Positions 18,244 through 64,000 are shown, counted from the stretch's first letter. The stretch: 64,000 bases of DNA from Candidatus Nanoarchaeia archaeon (GCA_028279765.1 JANQND010000022.1:26149-90148); one strand, 5' to 3'. Made by a program: numbers and translations. Notes: generated by a model from the sequence alone, not told the origin.

Positions 18244-18255
18244 GGTGTATACTTC

Positions 18256-19152: not shown

Positions 19153-19190
19153 GTTTCATCCTGCTCTTTGCAAGAGACCTATATACATAG

Positions 19191-35597: not shown

Positions 35598-36786
35598 GGT
35601 TGATGAGAATCAATACCGCAACTAAGACCGTAAGAACAGACTCTCTCCCGGTTGTCGGGCTGGCAACTACCTGTGCTGTTATACCCAGGTCTGTTCTGAT
35701 AGAGCCAATGTTAACTTCTGCCTGCACTATTTTCTCGGTCACGCGCTGTGCATAATGAATAAGCAGGCGAATATCATAATTGCCGACAAGGATACCTTCC
35801 GTGTCCCAGTACGCCTTCAGTACTCCAAGACCCATAGCAGGAATTGATGTTGTTGCAGTCTTAAACCGGGTATACTCAGTACCCTGCGCATCAGTGATAA
35901 TCATCTCACCATACACATCATCAATTTGCTCGTTCCACTTGCTCTCTAAAAAGATATCAAAAGCAGCAACATCCCCTAAGGTAAAGTCTTTCACATCAAT
36001 GCGCTTGATATCAATATAGAGGTCTCCGACAGTAACATCATCTTCAACGACAAGGCGCTTATCATCATAGATAATCTCTGCTACGACATGATATTTTCCC
36101 GGATTTACCTGCGCAGGCCAGCTTGCCGTAAGCTTTTTCTGCTGTTTGCTCGGGATGCTCACCTCATTAGTCTCAATTACGGCAATCTCCTCATAAGTAG
36201 CTCCAAGAATTTTGATTCTGGCATGGGCTTTAGCAATATCCTGTGAGCCAAAATTCATAACGGAAATAGCAAACTGGACAGGCTCTCCGGGATTCTTTGC
36301 GTCAGAATAAAGCTGTGCTTCTGCATACTTTCCGGGATACAGTACCCTCACCCACAGTTCCGTAACAACCGATGCTGTCGCACTAACAATAGTCCCGTCA
36401 TCAGTACCGAAGCTTGAAGGATATTCGGTTACTACCAGCTCACTCTTATGCACACCGGGCCTCTCAAAGCTCTCCGGAAGCGTCAGCTTATACCGGGCAA
36501 TCTTGCTTTCTTCTCCCTGAGAAATCGAGACCAGAGAGTCCTGAATGCCAATATATTCCGAGAGTTCTCCGCGTGCATAAACCAAAGCACGGATATCAGA
36601 TTCTGCACTGCTTCTGATTTTAAGTTCAAGATCATACTCTCCGTTGGGTTCAAAATCAACAACCTTACGGATAGGAGAAACACCGATCGCACTAACCGTA
36701 GCGCTAAGTAAAAAAAGCACCGCAATCCAGAGCAGTGCGCTCTTAGCTACATCATAGTTACGATGCATTGTAATACCTCGCTTCAA
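35545..36786 (-). CDS. membrane-anchored multi-beta-sandwich surface protein (COG1470-like), paralog B
   Basis: Signal (LLWIAVLFLLSATVSA). Beta-rich body. C-terminal TM plus basic tail (VLVAVLILINLGWFIYFVRSKRGG). Its start overlaps the stop of the giant ORF by 11–29 nt. Collinear similarity to paralog A (NYDIRLLIHYA vs NYDIDIVVHYF). Confidence 0.65.
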   Translation of the reverse strand: MKRGITMHRNYDVAKSALLWIAVLFLLSATVSAIGVSPIRKVVDFEPNGEYDLELKIRSSAESDIRALVYARGELSEYIGIQDSLVSISQGEESKIARYKLTLPESFERPGVHKSELVVTEYPSSFGTDDGTIVSATASVVTELWVRVLYPGKYAEAQLYSDAKNPGEPVQFAISVMNFGSQDIAKAHARIKILGATYEEIAVIETNEVSIPSKQQKKLTASWPAQVNPGKYHVVAEIIYDDKRLVVEDDVTVGDLYIDIKRIDVKDFTLGDVAAFDIFLESKWNEQIDDVYGEMIITDAQGTEYTRFKTATTSIPAMGLGVLKAYWDTEGILVGNYDIRLLIHYAQRVTEKIVQAEVNIGSIRTDLGITAQVVASPTTGRESVLTVLVAVLILINLGWFIYFVRSKRGGSTK

Positions 36787-51700: not shown

Positions 51701-54700
51701 CGGCGCACTATCCAGACTAAAGCTGCACCAGCTCGCTTCTCTCGATGTTGAAACATTGAAGAGAATGGCACTGGTGTTGTAATCCGAATTATTCAAAGGA
51801 GAGTGGACAGCAATAGAATAAGTGCAGCTAGTAATATAGGTAGGGTCAGGACTAAAAGTTGCCCCTGAGAAATCAGAAGAGCAGTCAGTATAATCAAGCG
51901 CCAGAGTGGTGTCAGTATTTGTTCCTGTTGCATTATGGAGTCCTGACAGGTTAAGGAAAGTGTCCTTGAAAGTAATATTTCCACCATCATAACCCGTGCT
52001 CGTCGTATTCATTGAAGTAACGATAGAAGAGGTAGCATTGAGATAGATTGTCCCACCTGAGCCTGATCTCGAAGGTGTTGCGCTGGTAGAGGTCCCACCG
52101 CTTGCATCTAAAACGCCGCTGAAATTGATAGCTCCCGATGAAGTCAGCGAAATACGGCCGCCACCGCCTGCATCACCATTATTGGTCGAGATTCCTCCTG
52201 AAGCAGTGAGGGAACCATCTCCTAAAATAGTGCGTGCCTCAAGCCATATTGAACCCCCTGATCCATGGTCGTTATTCCCGTCATAACTTCTCATATCTAC
52301 CGTTCCATTAACGATAATAACTCCGGCATCAGTTTGCAGTTTAAGCCCGGAGCCACCATTGCTGGTATCTCCACCGCTTCCCAAAGACAGGGGCCTAGAC
52401 ATATTTCCATAAAGTACGCCCGCGCCACTCCCTCCGTTTCCTCCATAGCTTCCGCCTGATCCGCCTGAACCGGGACCTACATCGGTAGGAAAGCCAAGCC
52501 CTCTTCCATCAAACTTGCTACTTGCTTTCACAGTTATGTTTCCAGAAGCATTTAACCACAGTCCCCTGCCATCTGCTGTCGTATTATAACAAATAAAGCC
52601 AAGATAAATGCCCGAATTACCAAAACAGTCCCCATAAATAGTTATATTATGTTCGCTGCCGAGTACAAAATCTCCTTTAACATTTAGCACCTCTCCCTCT
52701 CCAAAATTTCCTCCCAGAAGCCCTATGGAGCCATTAACTTCCCAGTTGCCCGGCCAGGTATTATTGGTAAAAGTCAGTGTTCCAACGCCTCCCTGCCTGC
52801 TTCCAGAAGTGGATCCGGTAGTGCCGGAGGCTGTACTAATAGTTCCCGTTAAATCCATGTCCTGCGTATAGCCAAGCCGTATTCTTCCACCGCCGCCCGC
52901 AGCACCGTTATTTGATGAGCTCCCCCCCGAAGCATCTAGCACTCCTTTTCCTGTAATAGTTTGAGCAGCAAGCCAAATACTTCCTCCTGATCCTCTATCA
53001 TTAGACCCACTGCTGGAGTACATAGTAATAGATCCATTGACTACAATATCCCCCGATAGAGCCTTAAGAGCAATACCAGAAGAGCCGGCAGCATTATCCC
53101 CTCCACTGCCAAGGGAAGTGGGTGCTGTAGCATTTCCATAAAGAATATTCGTTGAGCCCGGGAAAACGGTACCACCATATCTTCCTGACTCTTCACCCGA
53201 GGAACTAGGCCCTACATCAGTAGGGAATCCTAACCCAATTCCATCAAGTGTTGCACTTGATCCAATGGTAACGTTACCATTAAGGCTTCGCCACTCCTGC
53301 CCATGGCCATCACCGGTAATATTTCCCTCGATACCAGAGAAATCAATCAGGCGGTAATCACCGTAAACATACAATGTTCCATTATTGATAGTAATACTAC
53401 CCGTGCTATTCCATAATTGTGTCCCGTCATTTCTGCCGGTCCAGTTCCCTTGTGCAAAGAGAGGAAGGAAATACAAAGATCCACCCCCGTAACTGCTATC
53501 TACAGTAAAACTGGCAAGATTTTGTGGAAGAGTATTATTCGTGATGTTAACATCGCCCGTCCCTGAGCCATTAAAGAGAATATCCTGTCCTGCTGTGGGG
53601 ACAGAACCCAAGCTCCAGCACGATGCATTAGTAAAGTAGTTTTTCGTATTACAGATCCAGTAATTAGTACCTGAGAGGATAACACTTCTTGTCAGCGTTG
53701 AATTCACATTCCCTGCTTTATCCTGAACATAAGACGTGAAAGTATGCGTCCCCGTACTTAAAGAAGTGAAATTACGCTGGATAAATGCTGATGATTCATT
53801 GGCATAAAGCCCCTTAATTTCATCTTCCGATAAGGATCGATTGAAAAGAAGAATATCGTCAATGGTCCCATTGATAAGATTGCCAAAATCCACCTGCGAG
53901 GAATCCCCATCAACTAAGTCCCCAGCGTTTACAGAGCTCTTAATCTCAGAATCTACATAGAGAGAGACATTATTATCCTTAAAAGTGACTGCAACATGAT
54001 GCCACTCTCCCACGGAATAAAGAGAAGTGGCAGAATCAAAATTCTGTGCCCCTGTTGTGTTCTTATAGTCAATTCTGAATCTTCCAGCGGTTCTGGTGCG
54101 TACAGTATAAGAAGAATCGCTATTCTGATAAAACTGGTCAAAATTATCAGTATTGTCATCAAGATTGAACCAGAAGCTCACCGTCATCTCAGACTCATTG
54201 TGGTTAGGCGTAGTTCTCAAAAAATCATTTACTCCGTCAAATTGATAAGCCTTTCCGAAGTATCCTGCATCTGTTGAGGCGACACCCCCTGTCGCAGTGC
54301 CATTGTTTCTTCCCAGATAATCTACAGTACCATTACCGTCATCGAATCTCCACCAGGAAACCAATGAATTGTCAAAATCAATAAAGCCAGAGACATTACT
54401 TCGATTATCTGCTACACTCACGTTAATGTGAATACTGGAGCCGGACAAAACCTCGTTATTACTGGGAGTAGGGTTAACATAAGAAATATTAGGAATGGAA
54501 GTGTCAATTACAACAGATCTGCTCGTTGATTGAACAACGTTTCCTGCAGTATCCTGTCCATAGACAGTAAAGGAGTATCCCCGCTCAGAAAGTCCTGTCT
54601 GATTAACACCAAGGTACGCAGTGGACGTGTTTGTATAGAGAGCCAAAACCTCGTTTGAAGTAAGTGTCCTGTTAAAGATTAAGACATCGTCAATAGTTCC

Positions 54701-57700
54701 ATTCCAGTTCTCTCCCGAAGTAATCCACCCCCCTATAATTGCATTGACATTTTCAGCTAAGTCAACATTATAATGTGTTCCAATATCAAGAGCAGATCCG
54801 CACGTTTGGCCGTCAAGGTAAATCTGAGCATTTCCACTTCGGTTTGCAACAACAAGGGCATGGTGCCATTGATCGAGTGTTAAGAATGCATTACTGCAGG
54901 TTGTGCCAGTTCTCTCTGATCCATTGCCCATCTGAAAATGAAGGTCATCAGTATTAGTCATCCTAAAATTCCACCCTTTCTGTCCTGCTGATGCTGCGCC
55001 TTTCGCCACTAAAGCAGGATAAGTTACTGTTGAATTTCCGGATCGCTTAGCCCACAAGGAAACAGTAAAGTCGACGTTTTGGGCGAATTCAAAGTCAGTA
55101 TCATCCCCCAGGTCAAGATAGTCTCCATTGCCATCAAAAGTAAATCCTTTGCCTAAATACCCTGCGGTAGTTTGAGAAGCGTCTGCTACAATAGTTCCGT
55201 TATTTCTGCTCGTGTAATCAATTACCGCTGTACCGTTATAGTCATCCATACGCCACCAGGAAACCAGTGAATTGTCGAAATCAACGAACAATGAACTATT
55301 CATTTTTCCATCTATAGCGGTAGCATTAACAAAAAGATGATTCTCCGGCTTCCAGGCACCGTTTTCAGGTGTTGGAGCTGAAAGGGTGAGATTTGGGGCA
55401 GTAGTATCAATAGTGACAAACCTGCTTGCCACACTATTCACATTTCCTGCAGTGTCCTGTGCATACGCTTTGAAATTATAAAGTCCATCAGTAAGCGAAG
55501 TAAAATTACCAAATACCGATCTCGAGGAAGTATTCGCATAGAGTGCAGCAACTTCATTTGTAGTCAGAGAGCGGTTGAAGAGCATAACATCATCAATGCT
55601 TCCTGTTAAGAATCCAGCTCCTGTGTTATATGAGCCAAAATACATGTCATACGGGCCGGAGACGTTGAAATCTGCACCACTAGTGGTACTTCTGTCAAGT
55701 GCCCCATCGGTATACAAATACATACCACTAGCATTTCTTACTCCAACGACGTGGTGCCAGGAATTGTCCATAATCACTTTATTAGAATTTCCTGTGCCTA
55801 CTTGGTTGCTTCCATTTGCAACACGGAAAACAACAGTGTCCGTTCCTGAATTAACATAAATATTGAATCCTGCATTGTAAGTTCCAGCTATTTTATTGTC
55901 GACAATTGAGGTATATGCTCCGGGCACTCCGCCCTTTACCCATACAGAAACCGTAAAAGGATCTCTCTCAAAGTCAAACCGCCCATCTTCTATGATACGT
56001 ACATAGTCTCCAGCACCATCAAAAGAGAATGCCTTACCCAGATAGCCATCTTCCACTTGGGCTGCATCTCCATTGCTGGTTCCATTGTTGAACGCCAGAT
56101 AATCGATTACATTTCCGCTTGAGTCCGTATCATCCATACGCCACCATCCAACGAGCGAGTCATTGAAATCAATAAACACGGAGACATTATAAATGTCTGA
56201 AGCAGTTGCGTTCACAGCAATAAAACTCTCTGACTGAACTGAATCATTTGAGAGAGTAGGAGCAACATAGGATATGGAGGGAAGCACAGTATCAACATAA
56301 AAAGATACAGAACTGCTGTTTCTGTTCCCTGCTGTATCAACAGCATGAGCAGTAAGATTATGCTGCCCATCTGAAAAGCCGGTCAGGTTTGCTTCATAAT
56401 TAGAGGAGCTTGAATTGTACAGTGCTGCAATTTCTGATGCAGATAAAGACCGATTGAAGACCAAAATTTCGTCAATAGTTCCGTTGAACTCGTTTACTGT
56501 AGTAGTGTATTGTGTTCCGATGAGCTCGCGCAGCGTACCAACTTCTCCTTTTTTCGGGTACACACCGGTTAGAGATGGAATCTCGCTGCTATCAAAAGCA
56601 CCATTGAGATAAGCGCTGTGTACTGTTCCATTCCATGTGCAAACAAAGTGATACCATTCATTTGCGTTAATAGCATGGAATGCTATCTCATCGGTTGCGC
56701 TTCCATTGCCGATTAAGCAGCGTACCCAACCTGAAGCGAGGTGAAGATCATATGCATGATAGATACTTTGGGAGCTAGAATAATAACCATAAATGCCGTC
56801 AAATGAAGAAGAATCATTAGCGTATACCCATGCAGAGATAGTATAATTGCATCCCTCGCAAATCAAAGGCTCTGAATTATCAGAGCGAATCTGAACAGCA
56901 TCATCAGCTCCGTCGAAAGCAAACCCTTTTCCAAATTTACCATCTTCAGTGACATTCGTATGACCTAATCGGGTTCCATTATTGGCATAAGAACTTAAAT
57001 CAAGAGGATGTTGGGTACCATTCACATCATCAAAGCGCATCCACAACAGCAAGTCATTATCTACATCGACAAAGCTGTAGTGGTTACTGCTGTCATTAGT
57101 AGATAAATTGGCATAAATTATGTTCGAATTGTGGTAAGTATTGTTAAGGGGCCTATCAAAACCAATAAGCGGAGTTGCATTATCCTCCCCTACTCCACTT
57201 CCTGTAAGGTTCTCAATCTTATAGTATCCGTTTTCGAGACTTACCTTAATACCATTTTTCCAGGTAGACAAATCAGAATGTGCAAAAATAATTTTGTTTG
57301 GACAAGAATTATTGATTTCTGTCAGTTTTGTTGCGTCGGGGCAGACAATGATTGCCGAATCACGATGCTTGCGTAAAAAGAGTGTATGATTTGAAGCAAT
57401 ACCGGTAACAGACTGGGTGTCAACTACCGTTTTATCAGTCGAGGCATTAATGATAAGTCTGCTCAGGTTTACTGCCTGCGAAGAAAAGAAGCCAAATAAC
57501 TGCAATCGAAGGCCGTCGTTTTCTGATGAAAAATTCATGAACTGGTCAGTAGAATACGTGCCGCCGGAAGCCAGCGTTCCATCTACCGAACCTACAATGG
57601 TATAATTACCTGTAGAAGCATCAGTAGGTACAAAGAAAGAGACACCAGTAGATACCACTCTTACGTCAGTGGAGTTCACGTTTCCTGCGGTGTCCTGAGA

Positions 57701-60700
57701 ATAGGCATTGAATGAATGCGAGGTAGAACTTAAGGAAGTGAGGTTCGCCGAAAGGTATTTGAGGGAAGTATTTGCATACAGCGCATCAATTTCTGAGGGA
57801 GATAATGTCCGATTGAAAAACATCACATCATCCATAGAGCCATTATAATCGTAGGTCGACGGATATCCCCCAAGATAATACGCGCCTCCTGTATCGCCAA
57901 TTGCTCCATTAACTGACCAGATTGCACTGAATGATGGATTTGAACCATTCGTATAAACTACCAGCTGTGTGCCGTTAAAAGTTGCTGCAACATGTGTCCA
58001 CTTTCCTATAGGGATGCCGCTAGTGGATTTAACTGCCAGTCCGTTATTAAAGGTGCCATTATATATTCTGAACTCAAATTGGTTCAGGCTATTAAAGTCC
58101 AGATACGCAAGAATAGAACTCAAGCCTTGTCCAAAGAGCCTGCGGTCGATATCATTGTCCACAGAGGGTCTAATCCAGGCACTCCAGGTAAAGTTTGTCG
58201 CAGAAAAATTGAGGCTTTGGCTGTGCGCAATGTCTACCCGATCAGCGTTGCCGTCAAAAGCAATTGACTTTCCAAAGCGCCCTGAGTTATTAACTGCAAC
58301 ATTATTGACTAAGGTTCCGTTATTCCTTCCCATATAGTCAAAGATATGCGTGCCATTATTATCATCCATGCGAAGCCAGGTTACCAAAGAGTCTTCAAAA
58401 TCAAGGAAAGCCGATACATTTCCTAAGGCATCAGAAGCACTGGCATTTACCGTGATGTACGTTTGAGCGATGGATGAACCGTTCGCTGGGGTAGGGCCTA
58501 CAAATGAGATCGAAGGAAGAGTAGTATCAACCGTCACACTCTTAAGAGCAGTGGAGTTTACATTTCCTGCCTGATCCTGTGTATACGCTCTAAAGGTGTG
58601 TGTGCCGTCGGTCAGTCCTGTGAAATTATTAGCGAGGTGTCTTGATGAAGTATTTGCATACAGTCCTTGTACTTCTGAAGCTGAGAATGATCGATTAAAG
58701 ATCATTACATCATCAAGGCTTCCATTGAACCTATTAGAGTTGCCATGATACTGTCCCAGAAAACCATCTGATGAAGGAGAAAAAGCTGCTCTTCCTATAT
58801 AGCTCTGCTCTACTCCATTAATATAAGTTACAGTGTTTGAAGTATTCCAGGTAACCAGATAATGCGTCCAGACATTATTTGAAATCGAGTTAGCAGGGCT
58901 TGAGTCACCTGGTCCTACTATCCTAATCGTATTTGCTGAAGTAAGGTAAATCGAAGGGTCATGTGAGGTTCCCTGTGAAAAAGGATACTCGTTATCATCT
59001 CGCGGATTTGCATAGAACCAGAAAGAAATCGTTGCGGAAAGGTTACTAACATTATTTCCGAATTCGTTTATCTCCATATAGTCGTCAACACCATCAAAAT
59101 CAAATGCCTTTCCAAGTTTTCCATAGCCCTTCTGAACTGGATTTCCAAACAAAGTTGCATTGTGGTTTCCAAAATAATCTAAAACATCAGAGCCGTTAAA
59201 GTCATCCATCCTCCACCAGGAGACTAATGAGCCGTCAAAATCAATGAATGTGGAGACATTTCCAGTGTCGTCTGCCGAAGAAACATTAACAACTAAGGTG
59301 CTATCAGAAACAGCAAAGGTCCCGTCGGGAGTATGAGAAGTAAAATTAATTTCAGGTTTAGTCTGATCTATTCGGACAGATCGAGTTGCTCCTTCAAAGA
59401 TATTTCCAGCAGAATCCTGCGAGTAAGCAGTGAAGGAATGGACTCCTTCAGCAAGATTGCTGAAATTGGTCTCGAAGTAACTTGATGAAGTATTCGCATA
59501 GAGCGCAAGAATTTCTGCTTCAGTTAAGGTTCGGTTAAATATAAGCAGATCATCAATCGAGCCATTCCAGCTATCAGCATCAGTACTTCTACGCCCAATA
59601 AAGCCAGATTCATCATTCTCAAATGTTCCGCTCTGAGATGAAATATCTACTGTTCCCAAATAAACTCCATCAATATACAAGCTAATATTATCCCCATAAA
59701 AATACCGAACAGTCCACATTCTCCAGTTATTTCCAAGGCTAGAACTTATTGCAGTAACAAGATTAGTAGTTCCGTCATCAAATACTGCTTCAGGATTTCC
59801 AGAACTGTCCTGATATATAGCCCACCAGCTAGCACTTGCGCCCCCTCTACCGCTACTATAGATGTAGTTCCAGTCATTGTCAACAAGAGATTTAGCCCAC
59901 ACGTTGACTGTAAAATTCTGCGTAGTAAAATTCAAGCTCTTGTCACTACCCACATCAACATAATCAGCATTTCCATCAAAGCTGAAGGCCTTACCAAAGT
60001 ACCCATTCTCAACCTCATAAGCATTTCCGGTGATAGTTCCATTGTTCTTCCCTGTGTAATCAAGAATATGTGTCCCGTTGTTATCATCCATTCTCCACCA
60101 GGAAACAAGTGAATCATCAAAATCAACAAAAGTAGAGACATTGCCTGAAGTATCTGCTGCCGAGACATTCACCAAAACAGAGTCATCAGAATAGAAAGAG
60201 TCAGCGGTCGCGCTAGGGTAGTCGTAGCTCAAAGTAGGATTCGTGTTATCAACGAGAACAGTTCTCAGAGCTGTCGCATTAACGTTTCCTGCCAGATCCT
60301 GTGCATACGCTCTAAAGGTGTGTACACCATCGGAAAGCCCGCTAAAGTTCGCACCGACAATTCCTGAAGAAGTATTCGCATAGAGTGCCTTGACTTCTTC
60401 ATCACTAAGTGAGCGATTGAAAATCATCAGATCGTCAATCGTTCCATTGAAACGATTAGCAGTAATGCTTCCTTCCCTTCCGATAAATGAGCCACTAATA
60501 GTTAAATCATTAATGGAGGAAATAGTAGAGACATCTGAATCAAAGTTAACTCCGTCAAGATAATACAGGTAGTCAGAGCCATTGAAGATAAATCCGACAT
60601 GATGCCATTCATTCTCATTGAGAGTAATAGTTGCAGAAGTAGGGGTAAATCCTGTCGAGCCATCCCCAGAGTGCACACTATAATATACGGAGCTGGAAGG

Positions 60701-63700
60701 TTTTCTGATAGAGAGTGCAAGGCCTTTATTAGTATCATAAGCTCCCCAGAGCACATTATAACTTTGATGGGCAGCAATGTTCACCCACCCAAAGAGAGAA
60801 AGTGAGTTTGCATTACCATAGATAGAAGTCCCCATATCTGCATAATCAGTATTTCCATCCATAGTAAGGCCATTTCCGAAATAGCCGGAGTTGGCAGTAG
60901 TCGCACTATCAAGGAGCGTACCGTTCTGCCTGCTATAGTATTCTATGATATGCGAGCCGTTCGCATCATCCATGCGCCACCACGCAACTAAGGAATCATC
61001 AAAGTCAATGACGGTTGAAATATTCCCCACATTATCAGCTGCAGAAACATTGACGATCAGAGTATTATCAGAGACTACTGATCCATCAGCAGGTGTTGCG
61101 GAAGTATAGTTCGCCTCAGGTGTAGTTAGGTCAATGCGCAGCGTCCTATTAGAGCTGGAGTTAACATTGTTCTGGATATCTTGAGCATAGACGGTATAAC
61201 TGTGAACTCCTTCTGAGAGGCTGGTAAAATTGACTTCTAGGTATTGTGTCGAAGTGTTTGCATACAGTGCCCTTACTTCTTCTTGGGTAAGTGAACGATT
61301 GAACACCAGAACATTATCAATAGTTCCGTTAAAGTGGTATGTTCCTCCATTGCTTCCAATAAGAAGTTGCTCTGGAGCGTTAAAGTCCGTATTATAGGCT
61401 CCCCCGGTCATGTTGTAGAACTGCCCATCCCAAAAACAGTGATAGCCAACGGTAGCATTCCCTAAAGGAGTGCATGCGAGGAAGTGCCACTTACCTACAT
61501 CTGCAGTAATTCCTGAAATATAAGTGGACAAAGAGCCCCAGTATAAGTAATTGTTAGCAGAATGGAAATAATAGGCCTGAGACTTTGTCCATCCGACATC
61601 ATTATCATAGATATATCCAATATATTGGTTCCTTCCAGCAGTAGAGGATAACTCGTTAAGCTTGTACCAGGCAACAAAAGTAGTAGTATCAGCTGCATCA
61701 TCTGATATTCCGCTAAATGAAGTATCCCTGATAATATCACCGGCTCCATCAAATTCGAATGCCGCACCTATTTTTCCATCACTCGTTTGGCTTGCGCCGT
61801 CAACTATGGTTAAATCGTTTCTTCCCATATAATCGGTTGGATTATTTGATCCATCAAGATCATCCATTCGATACCAGGAGACCAAAGAATCATCAAGATC
61901 CACGAATACGGAGAGATTTGATGTGTCGCTTGCAGTTACATTTAGTATAAACGAATTTTTGCTGCGATGTGAACCATCAGCAGGAGTAGGGTTAGCAACA
62001 GAAAATTGCTCAATAACACCGTCAGTCAAATTTGCAGTGAGTGTATTAACAATAGAAGACAAAGTAGGAGAGTAGAAGCTGTTTGATACATTCCCTGCAA
62101 AGAAAGTAAAGTTCAGGGTAATATTTGTCGATGCGGGGTCAATGGAGAATGTGTTCTGTCCTGTAAATACCTGATCAGTCGTATAGTACCAGCTCCCGGC
62201 ATAGTATCCAACTGTCAAATTGATAGAGCTGCCATACAATGCCTGATGGTCAGCTTTTACCACAACCTGGCTATTGCCAGAAGTAAAATTAAGGTTGGAG
62301 ATAATTTGCTCCCCACGCGGCTTGAAACGATCAGAGGCATTCAGATAGAGGCCCATCATTTGAGTTGCAGTGAGGCTGGTGTTAAACATCATAAGCTCAT
62401 CAAGGCTGCCATTGATAGTTCTTGCAGCCTGGGTAGTATCACTATTAGGATGGCCACCGATAGTCAGCACCCTATCCCTACTATTGGCAATTCCTCCTCC
62501 AAGATCATCCGAGCAAAGGAACGTTCCATTCATGTAGAGTGCATAGTCAGTAGAATTAATAGTGCCAGCCACATGAGTCCACTTATTAAGAGGAACGGCA
62601 ACACTACAGTCAATCAGGGTGTCAGTATAGCCATTTGCACTCAGCCATAAGTGATTAGAGCCTGCTTCAAGCCCCAGGTACCAATATACGGAGCCTTGTT
62701 GGAAAATATATTCTGTACCATCGGTATCATTTCGCAGATATATCCACGCGGAGAGCGTAATATTTTTGCCGGTGATATTAAAATCATCAGCATAGGCAAC
62801 TTCCAGGCGATCGCCGTTTACCAGATCCATTGCTCCTCCATACAATCCCGATGAAGTGTAGGAAGCGTTTTTTATCAGAGTCGCATCATGATTATTCTGT
62901 GAATAATCATAGGTAGTAACTGCGCTCGCATTCTCATCAAAAGGAAGATACAGAACTAAACGGTCGTAAGGAGCACTGTCAGAAATTTCCAGATGGGTAA
63001 AATTATTCTCGGCTGTAACGTTTATCAGGGTCGTATTCACAGAAACATCGCTAACAATCAGGGTTGGGTCAATAATATGGTCAAACTCCAGGTACGTTGA
63101 AGCATTGTCCAGATTAATAACCTGCAGATCAAATACATCCTGGCTGCCGTTCATTTCAGTCAGGTAAATAGTGTAGTAACTTTCATTTACTATAACAGGG
63201 AATTGTGCAATGAGCCGGGTATCGTTCTGTTCAAAGACCCTTACTGCTGTATTAAGTGATTCATTGTTACGCACATAAATCGTGATGTCCTTAGAGGGAG
63301 TAAGGTTTTCTTCAAACGTTACTCTGACATACTCCCCGTGGTAAACAGGTGTGCTCCAGTTGCCATCTTTTTGACGTACCTCAGGATAAATATCAGCAAT
63401 AAGACTTCTATTCTCTGCAAGGTGCTCTGCCTTAGTAATCAGAATAATTTCATAGGTCTGATTTGAAAGATGCGGGACAGTCCAGTAAATACGATCGATC
63501 AATGAATTATTGTTACGATCAATATAACTTACATTTTCAACGAGCTGCCGGGTATCATTCACAAGCCAGTATAATTTCACCGATTCTTTTCGTGAGTCGC
63601 GGATATCAGTAAACGACAAAATGTTAGTGTAGTGCACATCAGACTCGATAACAACCCTCTTTACTCCCTCTGTAACATTCTCCTCCTCCACACTGGGGCC

Positions 63701-64000
63701 TTCTGTGACGTAGGTAACTTCCAGTGAGGGTGCCGGCTCTTCAATGACTAAGGAAGCTCCTGCATTAACATCAGCAGATACAGCAGTGTCAGTGATAGCA
63801 CCTACCGCCGCATCCAACTCAGCTGAGAGCCTGTTTTCTTCAATGATCCCGGATGCAGTTCCCTGAATGGAGAGTGTTCGAACGGAAGTCGAGCCTATTC
63901 TTTGAGCAGAGGATTTTGCAATCGTGTTTTCAGTCCTTGAAATTTGTGTAGAGAGAGATCCGATAGCCTTTGCGATTTTTTCTTGCTCTTCACGACCATT
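36758..64000 (-). CDS. giant surface protein, 5'-partial (>=9080 aa in window; N-terminus lies beyond the window end)
   Basis: 27 kb uninterrupted minus-strand frame. The track start (TTG at 63817) is artificial: I translated the same frame from 63818 to 64000 and found no stop. Contents: SDVHYTNIL…VPHLSNQTYE module (about 63400–63650); Ig-like repeats; 16 LamG_3-like modules; 2 Gly-rich GGSGG…GGGGRI repeats; four parallel beta-helix blocks; FN3-like C-terminal domains. No C-terminal anchor. Very dense N-x-S/T sequons. Confidence 0.85.
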   Translation of the reverse strand, partial: NGREEQEKIAKAIGSLSTQISRTENTIAKSSAQRIGSTSVRTLSIQGTASGIIEENRLSAELDAAVGAITDTAVSADVNAGASLVIEEPAPSLEVTYVTEGPSVEEENVTEGVKRVVIESDVHYTNILSFTDIRDSRKESVKLYWLVNDTRQLVENVSYIDRNNNSLIDRIYWTVPHLSNQTYEIILITKAEHLAENRSLIADIYPEVRQKDGNWSTPVYHGEYVRVTFEENLTPSKDITIYVRNNESLNTAVRVFEQNDTRLIAQFPVIVNESYYTIYLTEMNGSQDVFDLQVINLDNASTYLEFDHIIDPTLIVSDVSVNTTLINVTAENNFTHLEISDSAPYDRLVLYLPFDENASAVTTYDYSQNNHDATLIKNASYTSSGLYGGAMDLVNGDRLEVAYADDFNITGKNITLSAWIYLRNDTDGTEYIFQQGSVYWYLGLEAGSNHLWLSANGYTDTLIDCSVAVPLNKWTHVAGTINSTDYALYMNGTFLCSDDLGGGIANSRDRVLTIGGHPNSDTTQAARTINGSLDELMMFNTSLTATQMMGLYLNASDRFKPRGEQIISNLNFTSGNSQVVVKADHQALYGSSINLTVGYYAGSWYYTTDQVFTGQNTFSIDPASTNITLNFTFFAGNVSNSFYSPTLSSIVNTLTANLTDGVIEQFSVANPTPADGSHRSKNSFILNVTASDTSNLSVFVDLDDSLVSWYRMDDLDGSNNPTDYMGRNDLTIVDGASQTSDGKIGAAFEFDGAGDIIRDTSFSGISDDAADTTTFVAWYKLNELSSTAGRNQYIGYIYDNDVGWTKSQAYYFHSANNYLYWGSLSTYISGITADVGKWHFLACTPLGNATVGYHCFWDGQFYNMTGGAYNTDFNAPEQLLIGSNGGTYHFNGTIDNVLVFNRSLTQEEVRALYANTSTQYLEVNFTSLSEGVHSYTVYAQDIQNNVNSSSNRTLRIDLTTPEANYTSATPADGSVVSDNTLIVNVSAADNVGNISTVIDFDDSLVAWWRMDDANGSHIIEYYSRQNGTLLDSATTANSGYFGNGLTMDGNTDYADMGTSIYGNANSLSLFGWVNIAAHQSYNVLWGAYDTNKGLALSIRKPSSSVYYSVHSGDGSTGFTPTSATITLNENEWHHVGFIFNGSDYLYYLDGVNFDSDVSTISSINDLTISGSFIGREGSITANRFNGTIDDLMIFNRSLSDEEVKALYANTSSGIVGANFSGLSDGVHTFRAYAQDLAGNVNATALRTVLVDNTNPTLSYDYPSATADSFYSDDSVLVNVSAADTSGNVSTFVDFDDSLVSWWRMDDNNGTHILDYTGKNNGTITGNAYEVENGYFGKAFSFDGNADYVDVGSDKSLNFTTQNFTVNVWAKSLVDNDWNYIYSSGRGGASASWWAIYQDSSGNPEAVFDDGTTNLVTAISSSLGNNWRMWTVRYFYGDNISLYIDGVYLGTVDISSQSGTFENDESGFIGRRSTDADSWNGSIDDLLIFNRTLTEAEILALYANTSSSYFETNFSNLAEGVHSFTAYSQDSAGNIFEGATRSVRIDQTKPEINFTSHTPDGTFAVSDSTLVVNVSSADDTGNVSTFIDFDGSLVSWWRMDDFNGSDVLDYFGNHNATLFGNPVQKGYGKLGKAFDFDGVDDYMEINEFGNNVSNLSATISFWFYANPRDDNEYPFSQGTSHDPSIYLTSANTIRIVGPGDSSPANSISNNVWTHYLVTWNTSNTVTYINGVEQSYIGRAAFSPSSDGFLGQYHGNSNRFNGSLDDVMIFNRSFSASEVQGLYANTSSRHLANNFTGLTDGTHTFRAYTQDQAGNVNSTALKSVTVDTTLPSISFVGPTPANGSSIAQTYITVNASASDALGNVSAFLDFEDSLVTWLRMDDNNGTHIFDYMGRNNGTLVNNVAVNNSGRFGKSIAFDGNADRVDIAHSQSLNFSATNFTWSAWIRPSVDNDIDRRLFGQGLSSILAYLDFNSLNQFEFRIYNGTFNNGLAVKSTSGIPIGKWTHVAATFNGTQLVVYTNGSNPSFSAIWSVNGAIGDTGGAYYLGGYPSTYDYNGSMDDVMFFNRTLSPSEIDALYANTSLKYLSANLTSLSSTSHSFNAYSQDTAGNVNSTDVRVVSTGVSFFVPTDASTGNYTIVGSVDGTLASGGTYSTDQFMNFSSENDGLRLQLFGFFSSQAVNLSRLIINASTDKTVVDTQSVTGIASNHTLFLRKHRDSAIIVCPDATKLTEINNSCPNKIIFAHSDLSTWKNGIKVSLENGYYKIENLTGSGVGEDNATPLIGFDRPLNNTYHNSNIIYANLSTNDSSNHYSFVDVDNDLLLWMRFDDVNGTQHPLDLSSYANNGTRLGHTNVTEDGKFGKGFAFDGADDAVQIRSDNSEPLICEGCNYTISAWVYANDSSSFDGIYGYYSSSQSIYHAYDLHLASGWVRCLIGNGSATDEIAFHAINANEWYHFVCTWNGTVHSAYLNGAFDSSEIPSLTGVYPKKGEVGTLRELIGTQYTTTVNEFNGTIDEILVFNRSLSASEIAALYNSSSSNYEANLTGFSDGQHNLTAHAVDTAGNRNSSSVSFYVDTVLPSISYVAPTLSNDSVQSESFIAVNATASDIYNVSVFIDFNDSLVGWWRMDDTDSSGNVIDYLAFNNGTSNGDAAQVEDGYLGKAFSFDGAGDYVRIIEDGRFDFERDPFTVSVWVKGGVPGAYTSIVDNKIAGTYNAGFNIYVNSGTDTVVFRVANGSNQVGTGNSNKVIMDNSWHHVVGVRNASGMYLYTDGALDRSTTSGADFNVSGPYDMYFGSYNTGAGFLTGSIDDVMLFNRSLTTNEVAALYANTSSRSVFGNFTSLTDGLYNFKAYAQDTAGNVNSVASRFVTIDTTAPNLTLSAPTPENGAWKPENHLFVNATAIDGKMNSSLFVDFDNSLVSWWRMDDYNGTAVIDYTSRNNGTIVADASQTTAGYLGKGFTFDGNGDYLDLGDDTDFEFAQNVDFTVSLWAKRSGNSTVTYPALVAKGAASAGQKGWNFRMTNTDDLHFQMGNGSERTGTTCSNAFLTLDQWHHALVVANRSGNAQIYLDGQTCGSALDIGTHYNVDLAENVNAIIGGWITSGENWNGTIDDVLIFNRTLTSNEVLALYTNTSTAYLGVNQTGLSERGYSFTVYGQDTAGNVVQSTSRSVVIDTSIPNISYVNPTPSNNEVLSGSSIHINVSVADNRSNVSGFIDFDNSLVSWWRFDDGNGTVDYLGRNNGTATGGVASTDAGYFGKAYQFDGVNDFLRTTPNHNESEMTVSFWFNLDDNTDNFDQFYQNSDSSYTVRTRTAGRFRIDYKNTTGAQNFDSATSLYSVGEWHHVAVTFKDNNVSLYVDSEIKSSVNAGDLVDGDSSQVDFGNLINGTIDDILLFNRSLSEDEIKGLYANESSAFIQRNFTSLSTGTHTFTSYVQDKAGNVNSTLTRSVILSGTNYWICNTKNYFTNASCWSLGSVPTAGQDILFNGSGTGDVNITNNTLPQNLASFTVDSSYGGGSLYFLPLFAQGNWTGRNDGTQLWNSTGSITINNGTLYVYGDYRLIDFSGIEGNITGDGHGQEWRSLNGNVTIGSSATLDGIGLGFPTDVGPSSSGEESGRYGGTVFPGSTNILYGNATAPTSLGSGGDNAAGSSGIALKALSGDIVVNGSITMYSSSGSNDRGSGGSIWLAAQTITGKGVLDASGGSSSNNGAAGGGGRIRLGYTQDMDLTGTISTASGTTGSTSGSRQGGVGTLTFTNNTWPGNWEVNGSIGLLGGNFGEGEVLNVKGDFVLGSEHNITIYGDCFGNSGIYLGFICYNTTADGRGLWLNASGNITVKASSKFDGRGLGFPTDVGPGSGGSGGSYGGNGGSGAGVLYGNMSRPLSLGSGGDTSNGGSGLKLQTDAGVIIVNGTVDMRSYDGNNDHGSGGSIWLEARTILGDGSLTASGGISTNNGDAGGGGRISLTSSGAINFSGVLDASGGTSTSATPSRSGSGGTIYLNATSSIVTSMNTTSTGYDGGNITFKDTFLNLSGLHNATGTNTDTTLALDYTDCSSDFSGATFSPDPTYITSCTYSIAVHSPLNNSDYNTSAILFNVSTSREASWCSFSLDSAPNTTMQQEGSYYFNFTNSSMAQGSHTVQFFCNDTGNNKQETGIYSFFIDSAFPTINFTFPTPANNSVAPAESIFVNVTATDSVNVSLFIDFDDSLVSWWRIDDNNGTHVFDYMGRNNGTLSSDITINSSGYFGKGALLDGNDDIINLSGMNNYPFASGEEFTLSIWAKAKNDPRRQVLFNAYNGDGVYCEIEADGNFNCRLADANDANESVVTTSGDYSDDNWHLFVATRNATNLTLYVDGKLAASGADPTNSLTEPLDLYVGYFAGIVATGDFNGTLDDVMIFNRSLSPNEIIALYANTSIKYAHYNFTNLSFGSHHVRAYAQDTFGNVNSTELREIAVREAFIVPSELNTSNYTITGSVNGVLTNGGRYNSDQYLNFSHSTYGLRLQLFGLFSQGQVNLSGLVINSSDEKTVVNIGGSSGIYSNHTLFMPNHHGSGVYVCPNATRLSDVNTSCVNKIDFSVAELGSWKSGIRVTLDGPHYRVDNLTGSGVGEENVSPSISFEPPTFSDKTIIADDWIFVNTSINDSSNVSAFIDFDGSLVGWWRMDDNNGTHVFDYLGKNNGTLAGNSTQTVSGYFGEGYNFDGNGDYVDLGTDRSLNLSGDATIAAWIKPNTTNNVRWVAMTGDNSGLIQFGLDIGRTANTAGIIWGTTGDWAINFSDATLARNAWNFVAVTRNGSSGAWTGKIYLNATLDKTFESASNPSSLVNGLIGAFRTSATNQFFNGTIDNVLFFNRTLSASEIKELHANSSTKYVSRNYTSLVQGKHSFTAYAQDTAGNINFTETRSITTDQSAPSISFVNPTPANASSLSDNSFIVNASSSDSNNISTFIDLDDSLVSWWRMDDRNSSHIYDYLGRNNGTIVNNTEFTEYGFLGDGALLNESNEHFIEVPDSASLDIDGTELTLTAWVKTADGQGAIMDKQSSSSSGYRLNIELNGLAEFGVYGGDEGCGFTEINSNSIINDSQWHHVVGTWDGTNTRIYIDGVFEVSGSESCIATNNLAVDIGVGDDTAYLDATLDDLMIFNRSLSAEEVEALYANQSSRVLDINYSSLSEGHHYYKAYSQDKAGNINVTETRFATTDKTAPTMSYVSPTPSDGQILTNNSIYVNITSTDFHNISTFINFDDSLVSWWRMDDENGTHVFDYTGRNNGTVVGNATVNTSGYLGKGFNFDGDNDQITLGNVNFSSFEPEGTVSAWVNNHELDTYGGILTKSLGGIATTIQLDFGHYTSNSYRLFIGNGTNYASVSVSDTTTNAWELVTATWNSSDICIYLNGVFADCNTNTYGFIDYGNDLIISSMFGSSATRAFNGTLDDIMIFNRSLSAEEILALYANTSTTYLERNFTQLSDGNYSFSAYSQDTFGNVQALSSRLVHVFSQYPPIFFIDPTPVHHSLQNASPIINVSVTSPRNYYSFIDFNRSLVLWMDMDQIVGSQSNPSLVIDRSTYGNNGTPEDDAQQTDLGYFSKGFVFDGAGSGDYIEVPYDSSLSPLNEISFGMWVKLDDLANNMDFINFGSTQGGTYFLRSETDGDIVTQIRGPSTGANSCTATGQAEAGVWHHYFVTFNGSHMRTFRDGVEICGLNTTFTIYQPGSGYLSIGSHPTPTNLVDGTLDEVLIFDRGLSEEEVQAIYLNTGPLNYSANITGLRAGNYSVKAYAKDVYGYINSTEERIFTLGDFYAPEITFVDPSPANDQFIINTSAILNATIIDDIPPTYAFFDDNLTFWMTMDDINESGEPLDISGFGDNGSKQGDASQTADGIFGRAFTFDGTGDYINDTDQSQIRALSLWIYPDATTGTILSTDDKLGDSYNLQFVSGGILKSNQSDDAGSSLYVNSSNSIPTGQWTHVAIVSDPTADWTQMYIDGTLTQNITESGSQQSVAFTTIGAQHGAAPYDDFFDGRIDEILAFDRKLNETEIQALYNASKYHLERELLGLVEKDYNYTVHAVDATGNRDSAQLNFTVDTTRPTLEFVGATPPNGSGLSQNFIPINITANDTNTLMAFIDFNNDLSLWLRMDVNGSGDFQDYSSYNHTVTKYGSAVQVDDGYFGKGVRFSDGPSTDYLQVEDHDSLDLYDNWTVSWWAYPYQKSDGTATSYVFSKTPTTADTTGAYQLGIYTHHQSYSGDRAMIYGSNNGATACTITTTQFDMDEWMHGAMTFISGNVTHYVNGKEIGECGDVTWLVPNTQPLLIGRRGGATDAYLNATLDDLMIFNRTLTPVEIEMLYANQSTHYFARNFTDLTNGAYSFRAHTQDRSGFVNSTELREVSLETGTNVTICRPLKDPNTEYTLQNDLTTSGTCLTIYADNVTVNGNGYSITGDGSGLDYGINNTGSRMNLTVKNFNRIINLSRGVYFERVNNSLILNNSILISTGSDLSGLYLKDSNYNLVENNTITRNSSLSTTTHGIYINTTVLSSYNNLTNNTIILDGKGVGSGYPVYFRTAGGVNRYNRILDNLLNSSTGTFAFGVTFETGSALSSNNTVANNTIQLSSSVSYGVYLDGLAGSSIDSNEIIKNHIAVDGTSSAFGVYLFNPSGTSMNNTLIDSNSIYAEDASAYSIVLATTGSASIDSTTMQHNYLESAGSNAQGILFNNIGASQAYSTVYNNSINISSSNSVGTLNTFGIYMLETKQSGNVSLNTINITAPSTLTASIYSQNSNAGNVFVENEMYNSTYGIYLTNASSHNFTGGTFKHMEKNAVYLGSSSQQNFFKGLDIQDSDLSGFNITNSTNTIIINNTFSSTPLDYYVEDSEITEYQFNGSSLEIVNTHGKIRWINDSLYAFGDNLSNVISISSNSAFVNSTKDPGLNTSANITLNNLGSIVQSILVDFEDDGSFDLCPSGICQNLSFASSILLFNVTHFTTYKSSSVSFSNDWINITGTETCSSLYSTVNNDDVVSSCSSSYTDCIVAHLNISVTGTFNVLDCEVRMNATGDQNVGIYVQDSASMSVNQSLINATNETYEFIFQVNTSNFEFRDSTLEEAYGGMQILGNDTLVENATIRKNIDYGIHVQGYRTLINNSKITENTEGSGYGVYLNNVSASQVLNTNISANTYGAYLTASSSNLFENVESSGQSTGFYPTSSSRHNNYTDIISSSNTYAFFIADSTHNTLTNFTADYNTYSSGAISLFIGANYNKFYNITVRHNTGPGVYVGAFTSALNNTFDGIVALNNSVGLVLDFGSNNSIVNANLSNNTYNLEIGLNYFGGSGNTHRLITVDHSYAVYINESLSDYTYSPQTTPNAGFISCTECNNITIVDLNLSHSNSPGIYLYRSNASVISNVSVNENEVGVSLYTVYNTSVKNLTSIGSSTGIHLSNSQYNNISASTFEGGSIGILVGSSSENTIGNLSVTRASSHGVSLLTSTRNTFYNLTSNQNGGSGFSVGSNSHYTNFSSITANLNTDYGIYLNSVENSHVDGATLYSNNKSGLYVNLADYTTARNIDLWNCTSTSEGCLYLSRSENSFFEGITINNSQNYGLYIYGHSGVSVSSHNLFKDIIMNNTGAQDVYVHTQDGSSEATNNTFLNVSYADIDFSSTGTEEIIRKWYVDVLVNQTNTSVVPSANVSVSNVSSIVYLNTNTSLLGLVSFNVTEYYQTDDSAYSWYNNHTFTSIKSPLETTSVIANITSNRVDPNFVTITMESTVACGDTLDIPGKNYTLLRNISGAGNCLLIAADNISLSGNGFTITGNGSGTAINTTGTRHNLTIRDIPLISGFERGINLVNVRDSFIVNNTLDSSVLNPAYGIYTQDSTGLLIANNTIRWNSTESSSNSYGIYLSSVNNASSNNIVNNNTLSIYSASQSGYGIYVRNDDLETSGNSITDNTVDVLASSSAYGIHLFSSRDPAQNNIIQSNSIVLNSTSSGSAYGVYFLGNGTEPLGTTISLNSIVDNTVEASSTGSAYGIYLVQNFGSLIQDNTVYNNTLNITSSASSSDLSVFGIAQNSTTGTNISLNTINLTAPNSLSAGVYLVSGSNSNTLSQNTFTHSDYGLYLSSSSNNNFIREAILAPSRSGVLLTNASTSNRFTELTITNAGNNGFNVTNSNYTSIINNSVTGTPLDFIFLKSEISEFQLNGSSLSYGTDDAVVRWINTSLYLFGTNFTRLVQLTPNSIFVNTSMDPNFNTSANLTIYNLEIASPKASVDFNDDGIFADCSSVQCGGLVYSGGTLRFNVSSFTTYKASEATDLFACTILNEENTTYTLQTNITTTDTCFTIEANNVTIDFNGHAITGDGDALEYGVLSDGLNLSTLKDGRIHNFSHGIYFLNNSQSTIQNMTSTRNSNSGIYLQLSTDTFINNSNSSDNLYGIYLTENSDNVTVRSSSLHSDTLYGVYIDSSSALSLVNNSFESNGVGILLSSSPNASVHDNVFTTMGSAAITLSNTNYTSLSNNTILSSSAGINSSFSSHNTYERNTLQSNVLGFNSDQSEHFNVFTKNTFINCTSTSSSCISLIGSSNSIEGGVVNISSYHLLSVIGNDNNITDVIASNASIHGILIGNGSNATRLENLSITQTVKEGINVSSGTQHALINNTFSDVLRDYAVSDGSIASYSFVNNSLRISDDSNGILLFLNQSIVASGENLSNMISLSSNHIFVNSSRDRGLNTSANVTLYGITVASPTIQVDSDDDGIYTTCSAPLCHNLSFTASTLVFNVSHFTSYKVDIRAPSWNANQTNAPGKISEQKWFFVNWSDDSGLGNYIFSWNGTNGTWQNDTAVALTGLINQSNVTKTINLSRGNTIGWRIYVSDSAGVTNVTDIFTFEVENTPPEPVNLSAPLNLSTITDRYTFFNWTTGYDADGDTVNYTIVIEESPDCTGNGLECVGVNTVANPTSPSYTSTRLLGIDTWYNWSVRAFDGYNYSTWSGGFNFTLEGVISIDLNCVGGCSSTAEFGTVFHNTEYNTTSNSPQPLTFENDGNVFVDTLINATPLWDTVALNTVYFQFAAGNSSESSSFNWSNSTQLFTPLSSAQKYVARSLNFSNASDLAEAELSVIVPSGESAGDKNTLITIEARYYNAS
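45300..62300 (-). repeat. array of 16 divergent LamG/concanavalin-A-like lectin modules (period about 890 nt) inside the giant ORF
   Basis: The SLVSWWRMDD-type motif recurs on the minus strand at about 61870, 60970, 60100, 59210, 58370, 57040, 56150, 55250, 54350, 51400, 50060, 49190, 48310, 47450, 46550 and 45710. Each is followed by FDG…DY, a conserved Trp, and DDxMIFNRSLSxxE…LYAN. A conserved nucleotide patch catacgccaccagga recurs. The array is interrupted at 51400–54350 by the Gly-rich insert. Confidence 0.75.

Follow-up and report, generated by a model that had tools for sequence, protein, structure and literature searches.

The stretch of DNA analysed here, which we call the window, is a 64,000-nucleotide (nt) piece of the genome of Candidatus Nanoarchaeia archaeon (GCA_028279765.1, JANQND010000022.1:26149-90148), and its last part is occupied on the minus strand by a giant open reading frame (ORF), giant 1, that runs to the very end of the window. 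The ORF listing of the window gives this gene as 36758..63817 with a TTG start and 9,019 amino acids (aa). An earlier note, made from the sequence alone, had stated that no stop codon lies between this TTG and the last base, that the gene is therefore longer than 9,019 aa and that the TTG start is artificial; it had further proposed that the missing part encodes an anchor with several transmembrane (TM) segments, like that of a second giant gene in the window, giant 2. The features concerned are the following.

36758..64000, minus: giant 1, in-window part, 9,080 codons plus the stop codon at 36758-36760
63815..63817, minus: the TTG, an internal Leu codon 640 codons inside the full gene and the first ATG, GTG or TTG of the frame in the window
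63818..64000, minus: the flagged stretch, 61 codons upstream of the TTG; part of a linker, aa 580-640 of the predicted 9,659-aa protein

The open frame at the window end

Translation of the window showed the minus-strand frame of giant 1 to be stop-free from 64000 to 36761, that is, over 9,080 codons. The peptide crossing the TTG reads …REEQEKIAKAIGSLSTQISRTENTIAKSSAQRIGSTSVRTLSIQGTASGIIEENRLSAEL|DAAVG…, exactly as the earlier note had quoted it, and when the reverse complement is translated from base 64000 it begins NGREEQEKIAKAIGSLSTQISRTENTIAKSSAQRIGSTSVRTLSIQGTASGIIEENRLSAE-L-DAAVG…. No ATG, GTG or TTG occurs in this frame among the 61 codons of 63818-64000, and the TTG at 63817 is merely the first start-like codon that the frame offers within the window.

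Evidence from the window only suggests that 63818-64000 is coding, without being decisive. Only one of the six frames, that of giant 1, is stop-free over the segment; the probability of 61 open codons is 0.025 by base composition (per-codon stop probability 0.059), and a codon model trained on the remainder of the gene prefers the same frame. The 61 aa searched alone gave no significant match, and BLAST extensions into in-window aa 1-61, which had been considered as homology across the TTG, were dropped on account of this. When the upstream sequence described below was added, the flagged stretch aligned to the linker of giant 2 (KRLSKLIKKKLKEKRKNPEDPVVLSELKQAYEQ…GREEQEKIAKAIGSLSTQIS versus KHLNQQIKRKLKQKTNDPEDVALLSELKVMYEQ…GQKKKESAQKQITILTAQIS), and this alignment across the window edge is convincing because the upstream sequence has been recovered.

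Throughout this study, TM segments and topology were called by a Kyte-Doolittle hydropathy scan in 19-residue windows together with the positive-inside rule. Among the 9,080 in-window aa no TM segment was found, the best 19-residue window anywhere being below 1.3; the statement that the in-window part has neither signal peptide nor TM segment is thereby borne out, in the sense that hydropathy finds no segment fit for a signal or an anchor.

Recovery of the 5' end from a second assembly

An exact 60-mer of the window end had no match among the genome and metagenome contigs, exact look-ups of giant 2, of a 225-aa ORF and of the 9,080-aa fragment were negative, and a 433-aa neighbour led to a Logan contig of just 2.9 kb. 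The missing 5' end was taken from the Logan assembly of sequencing run SRR20820735, in which the window's aIF5B recurs at 100% identity, at a locus labelled L165. The route to it led from the 407-aa downstream neighbour of giant 1 to the Logan gene call, and, by synteny with the Ca. Woesearchaeota genome DPANNHV_H2.bin.75 (GCA_018221205.1, contig JAAOYF010000046.1), from a helix-turn-helix (HTH) gene to its counterpart P0308 and thus to L165. The Logan contig SRR20820735_108508 (58,639 nt) is 100% identical to window 64000->55706 over 8,295 nt (L165:12345-20639) and also to window 46768->34810 over 11,959 nt; in all, Logan contigs match the window at 100%, with no gaps, over 21,863, 2,867, 11,959 and 8,295 nt. 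Beyond the window edge the same frame stays open for 579 further codons, with the first in-frame stop at L165:10602-10604, and about 28 kb of the contig lies beyond the start of giant 1. The full gene, taken from ATG L165:10608, measures 28,980 nt, its first 579 codons being outside the window. The extension of the gene past the window is thus found directly, and the circumstances that the earlier note had named as fatal to it were looked for: neither an in-frame stop nor a contig end lies just upstream, and as to a sequencing error, the two assemblies agree base for base over their overlaps.

These data bear also on the suspicion that a 27-kb open frame is an assembly artefact, produced by collapsed or chimeric repeats or by an error that removed a stop codon, for which the highly repetitive nature of the giant 1 protein could be cited. 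At the DNA level, the repeats inside giant 1 are at most about 80% identical over at most about 220 bp, which is too diverged to make collapse likely. The Logan gene call for giant 1 is 9,553 aa, and because this equals 473 residues beyond the window edge plus the 9,080 within it, the two assemblies are concordant on length as well; a different genome, GCA_018221205.1, has an ortholog in syntenic position with 9,167 aa; and 9,080 stop-free codons are impossible by chance at the per-codon stop probability given above. We therefore regard an artefact of this kind as extremely improbable.

The possibility that the TTG at 63817 is a genuine start, either an internal one or that of a separate product of 9,019 aa without anchor, can be judged likewise. 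TTG is permitted as a start codon, and this is the first one of the frame in the window. An A/T-rich TATA-like box precedes most genuine gene starts of the window at a distance of about 21-25 nt; in front of the TTG, the adjoining 70 nt have 50% GC, and a TATA-like box sought there was not found. The frame is open for 640 codons upstream, in a stretch homologous to members of the protein family described below, and the codon falls within the linker that aligns to giant 2. Its product would be rich in N-X-S/T sequons and in domain types of extracellular proteins, yet would lack an export signal. A genuine start at this position has hardly any probability; it is the window boundary that makes the TTG look like one. 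The account that we consider very probable as a whole is that the flagged stretch is an internal piece of one very large gene, which the window cuts 579 codons after its start.

The start codon of giant 1

The frame is opened by ATG L165:10608, which lies 106 codons upstream of the ATG called in the Logan data and yields 9,659 aa; it overlaps the last 32 nt of the upstream double-HTH gene P0308. The Logan-called ATG, L165:10926 (about 1.4 kb beyond window 64000), splits the sole TM helix of the protein: …NIVNAVLLVILMV|MGVQFLNPGLTGFVV…, that is, NIVNAVLLVILMV|MGVQFL. We consider this ATG a miscall because the codon sits in the middle of the helix, and a start there would strip the protein of its anchor and of a 93-aa basic tail. 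The 93-aa tail used alone as query matches the N-terminal tails of family members from residue 1 (L033, E 3e-10; the ortholog in GCA_018221205.1, labelled L001, E 1e-6), with at least six further family matches at E<1e-3. The called start of the ortholog lies 16 nt inside its own HTH gene. Translation of giant 1 most likely starts at ATG L165:10608, a reading of the sequence that is favoured because the tail matches family N-termini and the ortholog start overlaps an HTH gene.

Several points weigh against this choice. The Logan gene caller chose ATG 10926. ATG 10608 lacks a promoter of its own and is situated within the end of the upstream gene. GTG 10893 lies about 24-35 nt after TATA-like sequences ('tataaata' and 'tttatct'), a spacing near that of other genes, and would put the helix at the extreme N-terminus; in some family members the TM is indeed found within the first 10 residues. 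Translation could accordingly begin downstream, at GTG 10893 (9,564 aa), TTG 10728 (9,619 aa) or ATG 10926 (9,553 aa). ATG 10926 is burdened by the cut through the helix, and against all three stand the significant similarity that the tail shows to eight or more family members in their N-terminal tails, from the first residues on, and the annotated start of the ortholog, which likewise overlaps its HTH gene. We judge a downstream start to be unlikely and keep ATG 10608; its overlap with P0308 suggests that giant 1 is co-transcribed with this upstream regulator gene.

Architecture of the giant 1 protein

From ATG 10608, the product of giant 1 is a 9,659-aa, 1.044-MDa acidic protein (isoelectric point, pI, 4.38). 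The earlier note had advised inspecting the adjacent contig for the true start and for TM segments, and there we find, together with ATG 10608, a single strongly hydrophobic 19-mer at aa 94-112 (Kyte-Doolittle 2.25, with 1.28 as the second-highest value in the protein). The 93-aa tail preceding it is basic, with 23 K/R against 8 D/E, and the 30 aa following it contain 0 K/R. The protein carries 467 N-X-S/T sequons (5.0 per 100 aa), compared with 0-0.9 per 100 aa in cytoplasmic proteins of the window. Because of the positive-inside charge pattern and the 467 sequons, the helix is predicted to be a type II signal-anchor (N-in, C-out), and everything after it would be exported, N-glycosylated and displayed as a long surface filament.

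After the helix comes an 'LTGFVV' motif and then a base of about 450 aa, composed of a beta-rich 'VRLVDG' domain, a Cys-rich 'C..W…CFG..CC' domain, a weak cadherin/Big_9-like domain and a 'VGKPVVW' domain; Pfam gives on this base only a sub-threshold Big_9/Cadherin_5 match at aa 352-440. A charged, putative coiled-coil-like linker between the 'GKPVxW' domain and the next module crosses the window edge. Thereafter come the SDVHYTNIL module, named by its motif, about 17 units of Big_13 plus LamG in two arrays with a Gly-rich block between them, then parallel beta-helix blocks, three to four in number, and finally a C-terminal region that is conserved; they are located in the window as follows.

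63065..63751, minus: SDVHYTNIL module, in-window aa 84-312; 310.7 bits with the profile hidden Markov model (HMM) described below; predicted two tandem beta-sandwich domains
53681..63013, minus: first array of Big_13 plus Laminin_G_3 (LamG/concanavalin-like), period about 290-300 aa
51821..53680, minus: Gly/Ser-rich block, in-window aa 3441-4060; no Pfam match; found in other family members
44981..51820, minus: second array of Big_13 plus Laminin_G_3, with further Laminin_G_3 stretches in Pfam
37781..44980, minus: three to four right-handed parallel beta-helix blocks (NosD/Beta_helix, PbH1-type repeats) by Pfam
36761..37780, minus: C-terminal region of about 340 aa; no Pfam match, no TM; conserved at family C-termini

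In Pfam, Laminin_G_3 occurs alongside Big_13 in 11 stretches of the first half of giant 1 (E 2.8e-211), and over the two halves it forms 17 stretches with 693.5 and 388.7 bits against a gathering cut-off of 27.6 (PF13385); an FNRSLS motif recurs every ~280-300 aa in the first array. The beta-helix assignment comes from NosD (PF05048; E 9.4e-62, 208.6 bits against a cut-off of 23.6, 9 stretches) and Beta_helix (PF13229; E 3.9e-48, 163.5 bits against 25.9, 9 stretches). The Gly/Ser-rich block is 47% identical to a family member in L146, and the C-terminal region is about 30% identical to the C-termini of family members in L014, L028, L093, L120 and L156.

The family defined by the SDVHYTNIL module

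No Pfam model matches the module (in-window aa 84-312). We made a profile, A1, from a 13-sequence alignment of about 228 positions, and this HMM detected 2,588 representative proteins at E<=1e-3, 1,255 of them at E<=1e-30. Among species-representative genomes it found 434 loci, nearly all in Woese-, Pace- or Nanoarchaeota, and there are many metagenome loci in addition. The giant 1 module is 40-58% identical to members from many loci; in the protein collection, from which giant 1 itself is absent, nothing exceeded 48% identity to in-window aa 1-350, and in the metagenome collection no ortholog had more than 60% module identity. An AlphaFold2 (AF2) model of the module, with a predicted local distance difference test score (pLDDT) of 80.6, is all-beta and has two beta-sandwich domains. 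Its matches in the PDB are weak and generic (among them HA70, a xylanase carbohydrate-binding module (CBM) and SGBP-B), and because their template modelling score (TM-score) is 0.31 at most, no function can be assigned from the fold.

What precedes the module is consistent in number of helices, about 84% of the members having exactly one TM there. Database members starting with Met, 144 in number, have one TM upstream of the module in 121 cases, none in 22 and more than one in a single case, with the module at a median offset of 389 aa (maximum 836). Very similar values were obtained for the 142 N-complete ORFs among 160 fetched loci: one TM in 119, none in 23, more than one in 0, and a median offset of 464 aa (maximum 837). 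The offset peaks at about 390-460 aa in the family, with a 5-95% range of 179-738 aa, and most members without TM are explained by the hydropathy threshold, masked sequence or miscalled starts. In the closest relatives the elements follow one another as a cytoplasmic tail, one TM, 'ITGxAV', an 'RVYLD' domain, a Cys-rich 'LCT.W…CYGS..CC' domain, a cadherin-like domain, an 'I.KPVKW' domain, a charged linker and the module; the base elements (Cys-rich 'C..W…CYG..CC', cadherin-like, 'GKPVKW') are visible in L001-L006.

Giant 1 fits this family, having one helix at aa 94-112, the conserved base and the module at aa 663 of 9,659. Its N-terminus is 34% identical to that of the L001 ortholog over 553 aa (E 4e-94), and the module of the two proteins is 56% identical.

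Two further features of the family were recorded. A motif '[ILV]-T-G-x-[AV]-[VI]' occurs no more than about 35 residues after the TM in 56 of 119 single-TM members, compared with 6% of control windows; examples are 'LTGFVV' in giant 1, 'VTGNFV' and 'ITGSVI' in giant 2 (aa ~91-101 and ~818-829; ~31318-31348 and 29132-29167, minus) and 'SITGFAT' in a sequon-rich 225-aa ORF at 34213..34890. In front of the module there is often another pair of TG motifs, and the motif may serve as a signal for processing or sorting. Some family members contain the module two or three times in one protein: L018 (aa 626, 1712, 2611), L040 and 21 of 167 module-matching proteins.

The tail, the single TM, the 'TG' motif, the base of about 450 aa and the module might together be an undescribed anchoring and stalk cassette, common to DPANN archaea, to which Woese-, Pace- and Nanoarchaeota would attach exchangeable adhesion arrays. 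This is a tentative reading, to which we give rather less than even weight; it also takes in that the size of giant 1 (9,659 aa) would exceed that of a 9,409-aa protein discussed below and that the overlap with an HTH gene would occur in at least two genomes. The cassette has no Pfam model and may merit a family description.

Giant 2 and the number of transmembrane helices

Giant 2 (21917..31618, 3,233 aa) has SSDVHYTNIL at about aa 1475-1484, and predicted TM segments start at aa 62, 572 and 799, with a C-terminal one at 3211; the description in the earlier note, which placed the module about 1470 aa downstream of the N-terminus and after TM anchors, is accurate. The module HMM covers only the first half of the module in this protein, at aa 1443-1544. 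The protein consists of two parts in front of its array.

29234..31618, minus: giant 2 aa 1-795; cytoplasmic head, TM1, Cys-rich ectodomain, TM2 and basic loop; no giant 1 counterpart
26987..29233, minus: giant 2 aa 796-1544; TM3, base, coiled-coil-like linker and first half-module; homologous to the giant 1 N-terminus

The cytoplasmic head is 'KGYSLQAIEESLLREGY', and the Cys-rich ectodomain contains a Gly13 run. In BLASTP the recovered N-terminus of giant 1 is colinear with giant 2 aa ~796-1560 (34% identity, 789 columns, E 7e-120), while the in-window part of giant 1 had aligned to giant 2 with E 1e-35. From TM3 onward the two proteins share the TM, the TG motif, the base, the linker and the first half-module, and the sequon density of giant 2 (4.9 per 100 aa) is also like that of giant 1. 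Giant 2 differs in having the additional N-terminal unit of 795 aa, in which two TMs lie, and a further TM at its C-terminus, in lacking the second half of the module, and in its array, which is Big_9/He_PIG/cadherin-like in contrast to the LamG and beta-helix units of giant 1. Giant 2 aa 799-1443 shows exactly the element order of the closest relatives described above; giant 2 is therefore a canonical family unit, beginning at TM3, plus an extra N-terminal unit, and in this respect an outlier of the family. It looks like a fusion, and its N-terminal arrangement was seen in no other sampled family member.

These results decide what the missing part of giant 1 is like. If it resembled the first ~1,440 aa of giant 2, with several TMs, the gene would encode about 10,400 aa; in favour of this, giant 2 has three TMs before its module, which lies at offset 1443, and the alignment of the in-window part pairs its aa 2 in giant 1 with aa 1345 of giant 2. 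In the recovered sequence, however, an in-frame stop occurs 580 codons past the window edge and there is a single hydrophobic helix; the alignment to giant 2 begins only at giant 2 aa ~796; and more than one upstream TM is present in 0/142 N-complete ORFs and 1/144 database members. A multi-TM part of this length is very improbable. From the layout of the family and of giant 2, the missing part had been predicted beforehand as a single-TM unit of about 400-650 aa. The proposal of a similar multi-TM anchor region thus holds for the anchor and the coiled-coil-like linker, both of which are present, and fails for the number of TMs, which is one, and for the length, which is 579 aa and not ~1,350-1,470.

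Ortholog and gene neighbourhood

The contig JAAOYF010000046.1 carries the positional ortholog of giant 1, an unnamed 9,167-aa protein without Pfam hit on record. The gene order common to this contig and the window comprises the double-HTH gene, the giant gene, a giant of ~3,000 aa with He_PIG/Big_9 (the counterpart of giant 2, 2,998 aa), MoxR-DUF58-VWA, PUA genes, aIF5B and Trm1. Like giant 1, the ortholog has a single TM after a basic tail, with identities of 56% in the module and 34% in the base; in length it falls about 490 aa short of giant 1, and the two were compared over its first 4,091 aa. Since aIF5B is only 74% identical, the genome belongs to a different genus-level lineage. Neighbours of giant 1 in the window are archaeal (aIF5B, Trm1, CTP-dependent riboflavin kinase, RtcA, DUF460), the best named matches of aIF5B being from Nano-/Woesearchaeota at 74-76% identity, and giant 1 belongs to a Woesearchaeota-like DPANN archaeon. 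Downstream of giant 1 are the 407-aa protein, which has two TMs, and an HTH protein; Rfam and tRNA scans of the 64-kb window gave no matches.

Directly upstream of giant 1, P0308 (L165:10001-10639, 212 aa) contains two Sigma70_r4_2-like HTH motifs, '…RDETTIWTT…' and '…RDERTVWTVV…'. It is not the same gene as its paralog at window 34944..35597, which lies between giants 1 and 2. The HTH gene of GCA_018221205.1 is P0293 (L001:7639-8235), with a 16-nt overlap onto the giant start, and the double-HTH protein may be a dedicated regulator that is translationally coupled to the giant gene. Further upstream, L165:1-9487 encodes GT2, GT4 and GT2+GLF proteins, a FUT8/NodZ-like fucosyltransferase, an epimerase/dehydratase, an ABC-2 exporter pair and DUF6541, a glycan cluster of note in view of the sequon density of giants 1 and 2, about 5 per 100 aa.

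Three other observations concern the window itself. A MoxR AAA+ ATPase, DUF58 and BatA/VWA operon (17308..20492, minus) has the same position in the syntenic Woesearchaeota contig (L164). A 1,289-aa protein at 7414..11283, minus, has a lipoprotein-like N-terminus (MKKLISVLLLTLALMLAAC), no Pfam match and, unlike the giants, only 0.5 sequons per 100 aa; it is called at 1,289 aa on the Logan contig as well. The aIF5B ORF (13813..15675, plus) is on record as 620 aa from a GTG, while its homologs have 584-587 aa, their starts falling on an internal Met (13921) when aligned; judging from this alignment, the 36-codon N-terminal extension is probably a start miscall.

Comparison with known giant proteins

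Comparable in size and setting are the SPEARE proteins of Nanohaloarchaeota, such as SVXNc_0300 with 9,409 aa and BNXNv_0298 with 8,880 aa, the former having been reported as the largest protein of any cultivated archaeon (PMC10266531). Like giant 1, they are membrane-anchored, acidic, extracellular DPANN proteins of ~9,000 aa and ~1 MDa with adhesion-type repeats and a proposed role in host contact. By description (PMC10266531), their parts are a Sec signal peptide, an Ig-like domain, WD40/PQQ propellers, Ig/fibronectin arrays and a VirB4/TraG-like ATPase, and the gene of another secretion ATPase follows downstream. When the whole 9,659 aa of giant 1 were scanned with Pfam, neither an ATPase domain nor any other of the SPEARE domains was found, and downstream of giant 1 are the genes of a small membrane protein and an HTH protein; on the basis of the published description, giant 1 is set apart from SPEARE.

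Laminin_G_3 is the commonest domain of archaeal proteins above 5,000 aa, so that giant LamG-rich proteins are typical of the archaeal "huge proteins" (PMC11573180), and LamG proteins of arCOG07813 have been proposed as DPANN cell-adhesion proteins (PMC7414124, PMC10266531). These resemble giant 1 in the dominance of Laminin_G_3, in a function that is either proposed to be adhesion or unknown, and in their occurrence in Pacearchaeota and other DPANN. Their commonest architecture, however, is one or few N-terminal LamG domains, whereas giant 1 has about 17 LamG plus beta-helix units behind the cassette. Halomucin of Haloquadratum walsbyi (9,159 aa; PMC10266531, PMC11573180) is also a giant secreted archaeal protein of comparable size, but belongs to a different phylum and is mucin-like by description. 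As for bacterial RTX/Bap/LapA adhesins, no HemolysinCabind or other such Pfam family matched giant 1, whose genome is archaeal and whose anchor is an N-terminal TM helix.

Role and meaning

In our analysis, giant 1 most likely binds carbohydrates or the cell surface of a host or partner. This adhesion role is derived from the domain types and from the literature proposals for related DPANN proteins; the lectin-like LamG and the beta-helix units would bind glycans or surface structures of the partner. A point against it is that the beta-helix blocks could be enzymes resembling polysaccharide lyases or hydrolases, and not structural elements. The same anatomy might indeed belong to an envelope or matrix component, or to an enzyme array degrading or sequestering surface polysaccharides, instead of a host-attachment adhesin: the NosD/Beta_helix fold is one typically seen in polysaccharide lyases and hydrolases, LamG units are similar to carbohydrate-binding modules, the weak structural matches of the module are sugar-binding beta-sandwiches (such as HA70, xylanase CBM, SGBP-B), and a cluster for glycan synthesis and ABC-2 export lies just upstream. 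No catalytic family was significant in the Pfam scans, though, the fold matches do not exceed a TM-score of 0.31, and published work on LamG and giant proteins of DPANN archaea leans towards cell-cell interaction (PMC7414124, PMC10266531). We consider such a different role conceivable but improbable, and prefer attachment.

Two start artefacts are stacked on giant 1, the TTG of the window (9,019 aa) and the ATG of the gene caller (9,553 aa), and either of them hides the sole export or anchoring signal of a 1-MDa protein. Genomes of DPANN archaea are usually very small, and giant 1 takes a large share of what is probably a very small genome. With 9,659 aa it slightly exceeds the largest protein that has been reported from cultivated archaea; it extends what is known and is no surprise, because the 9,167-aa ortholog was already present, unannotated, in a public metagenome-assembled genome. 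Giant 1 is an ordinary though record-sized member of the large surface proteins of DPANN archaea, which are tiny symbionts. The family to which it belongs is large, unnamed and made up of modular surface proteins; it probably governs attachment to partners, and its norm, a single signal-anchor followed by a conserved base, offers a defined cassette for structural work, for antibodies and cryo-electron tomography (cryo-ET), and for a family model.

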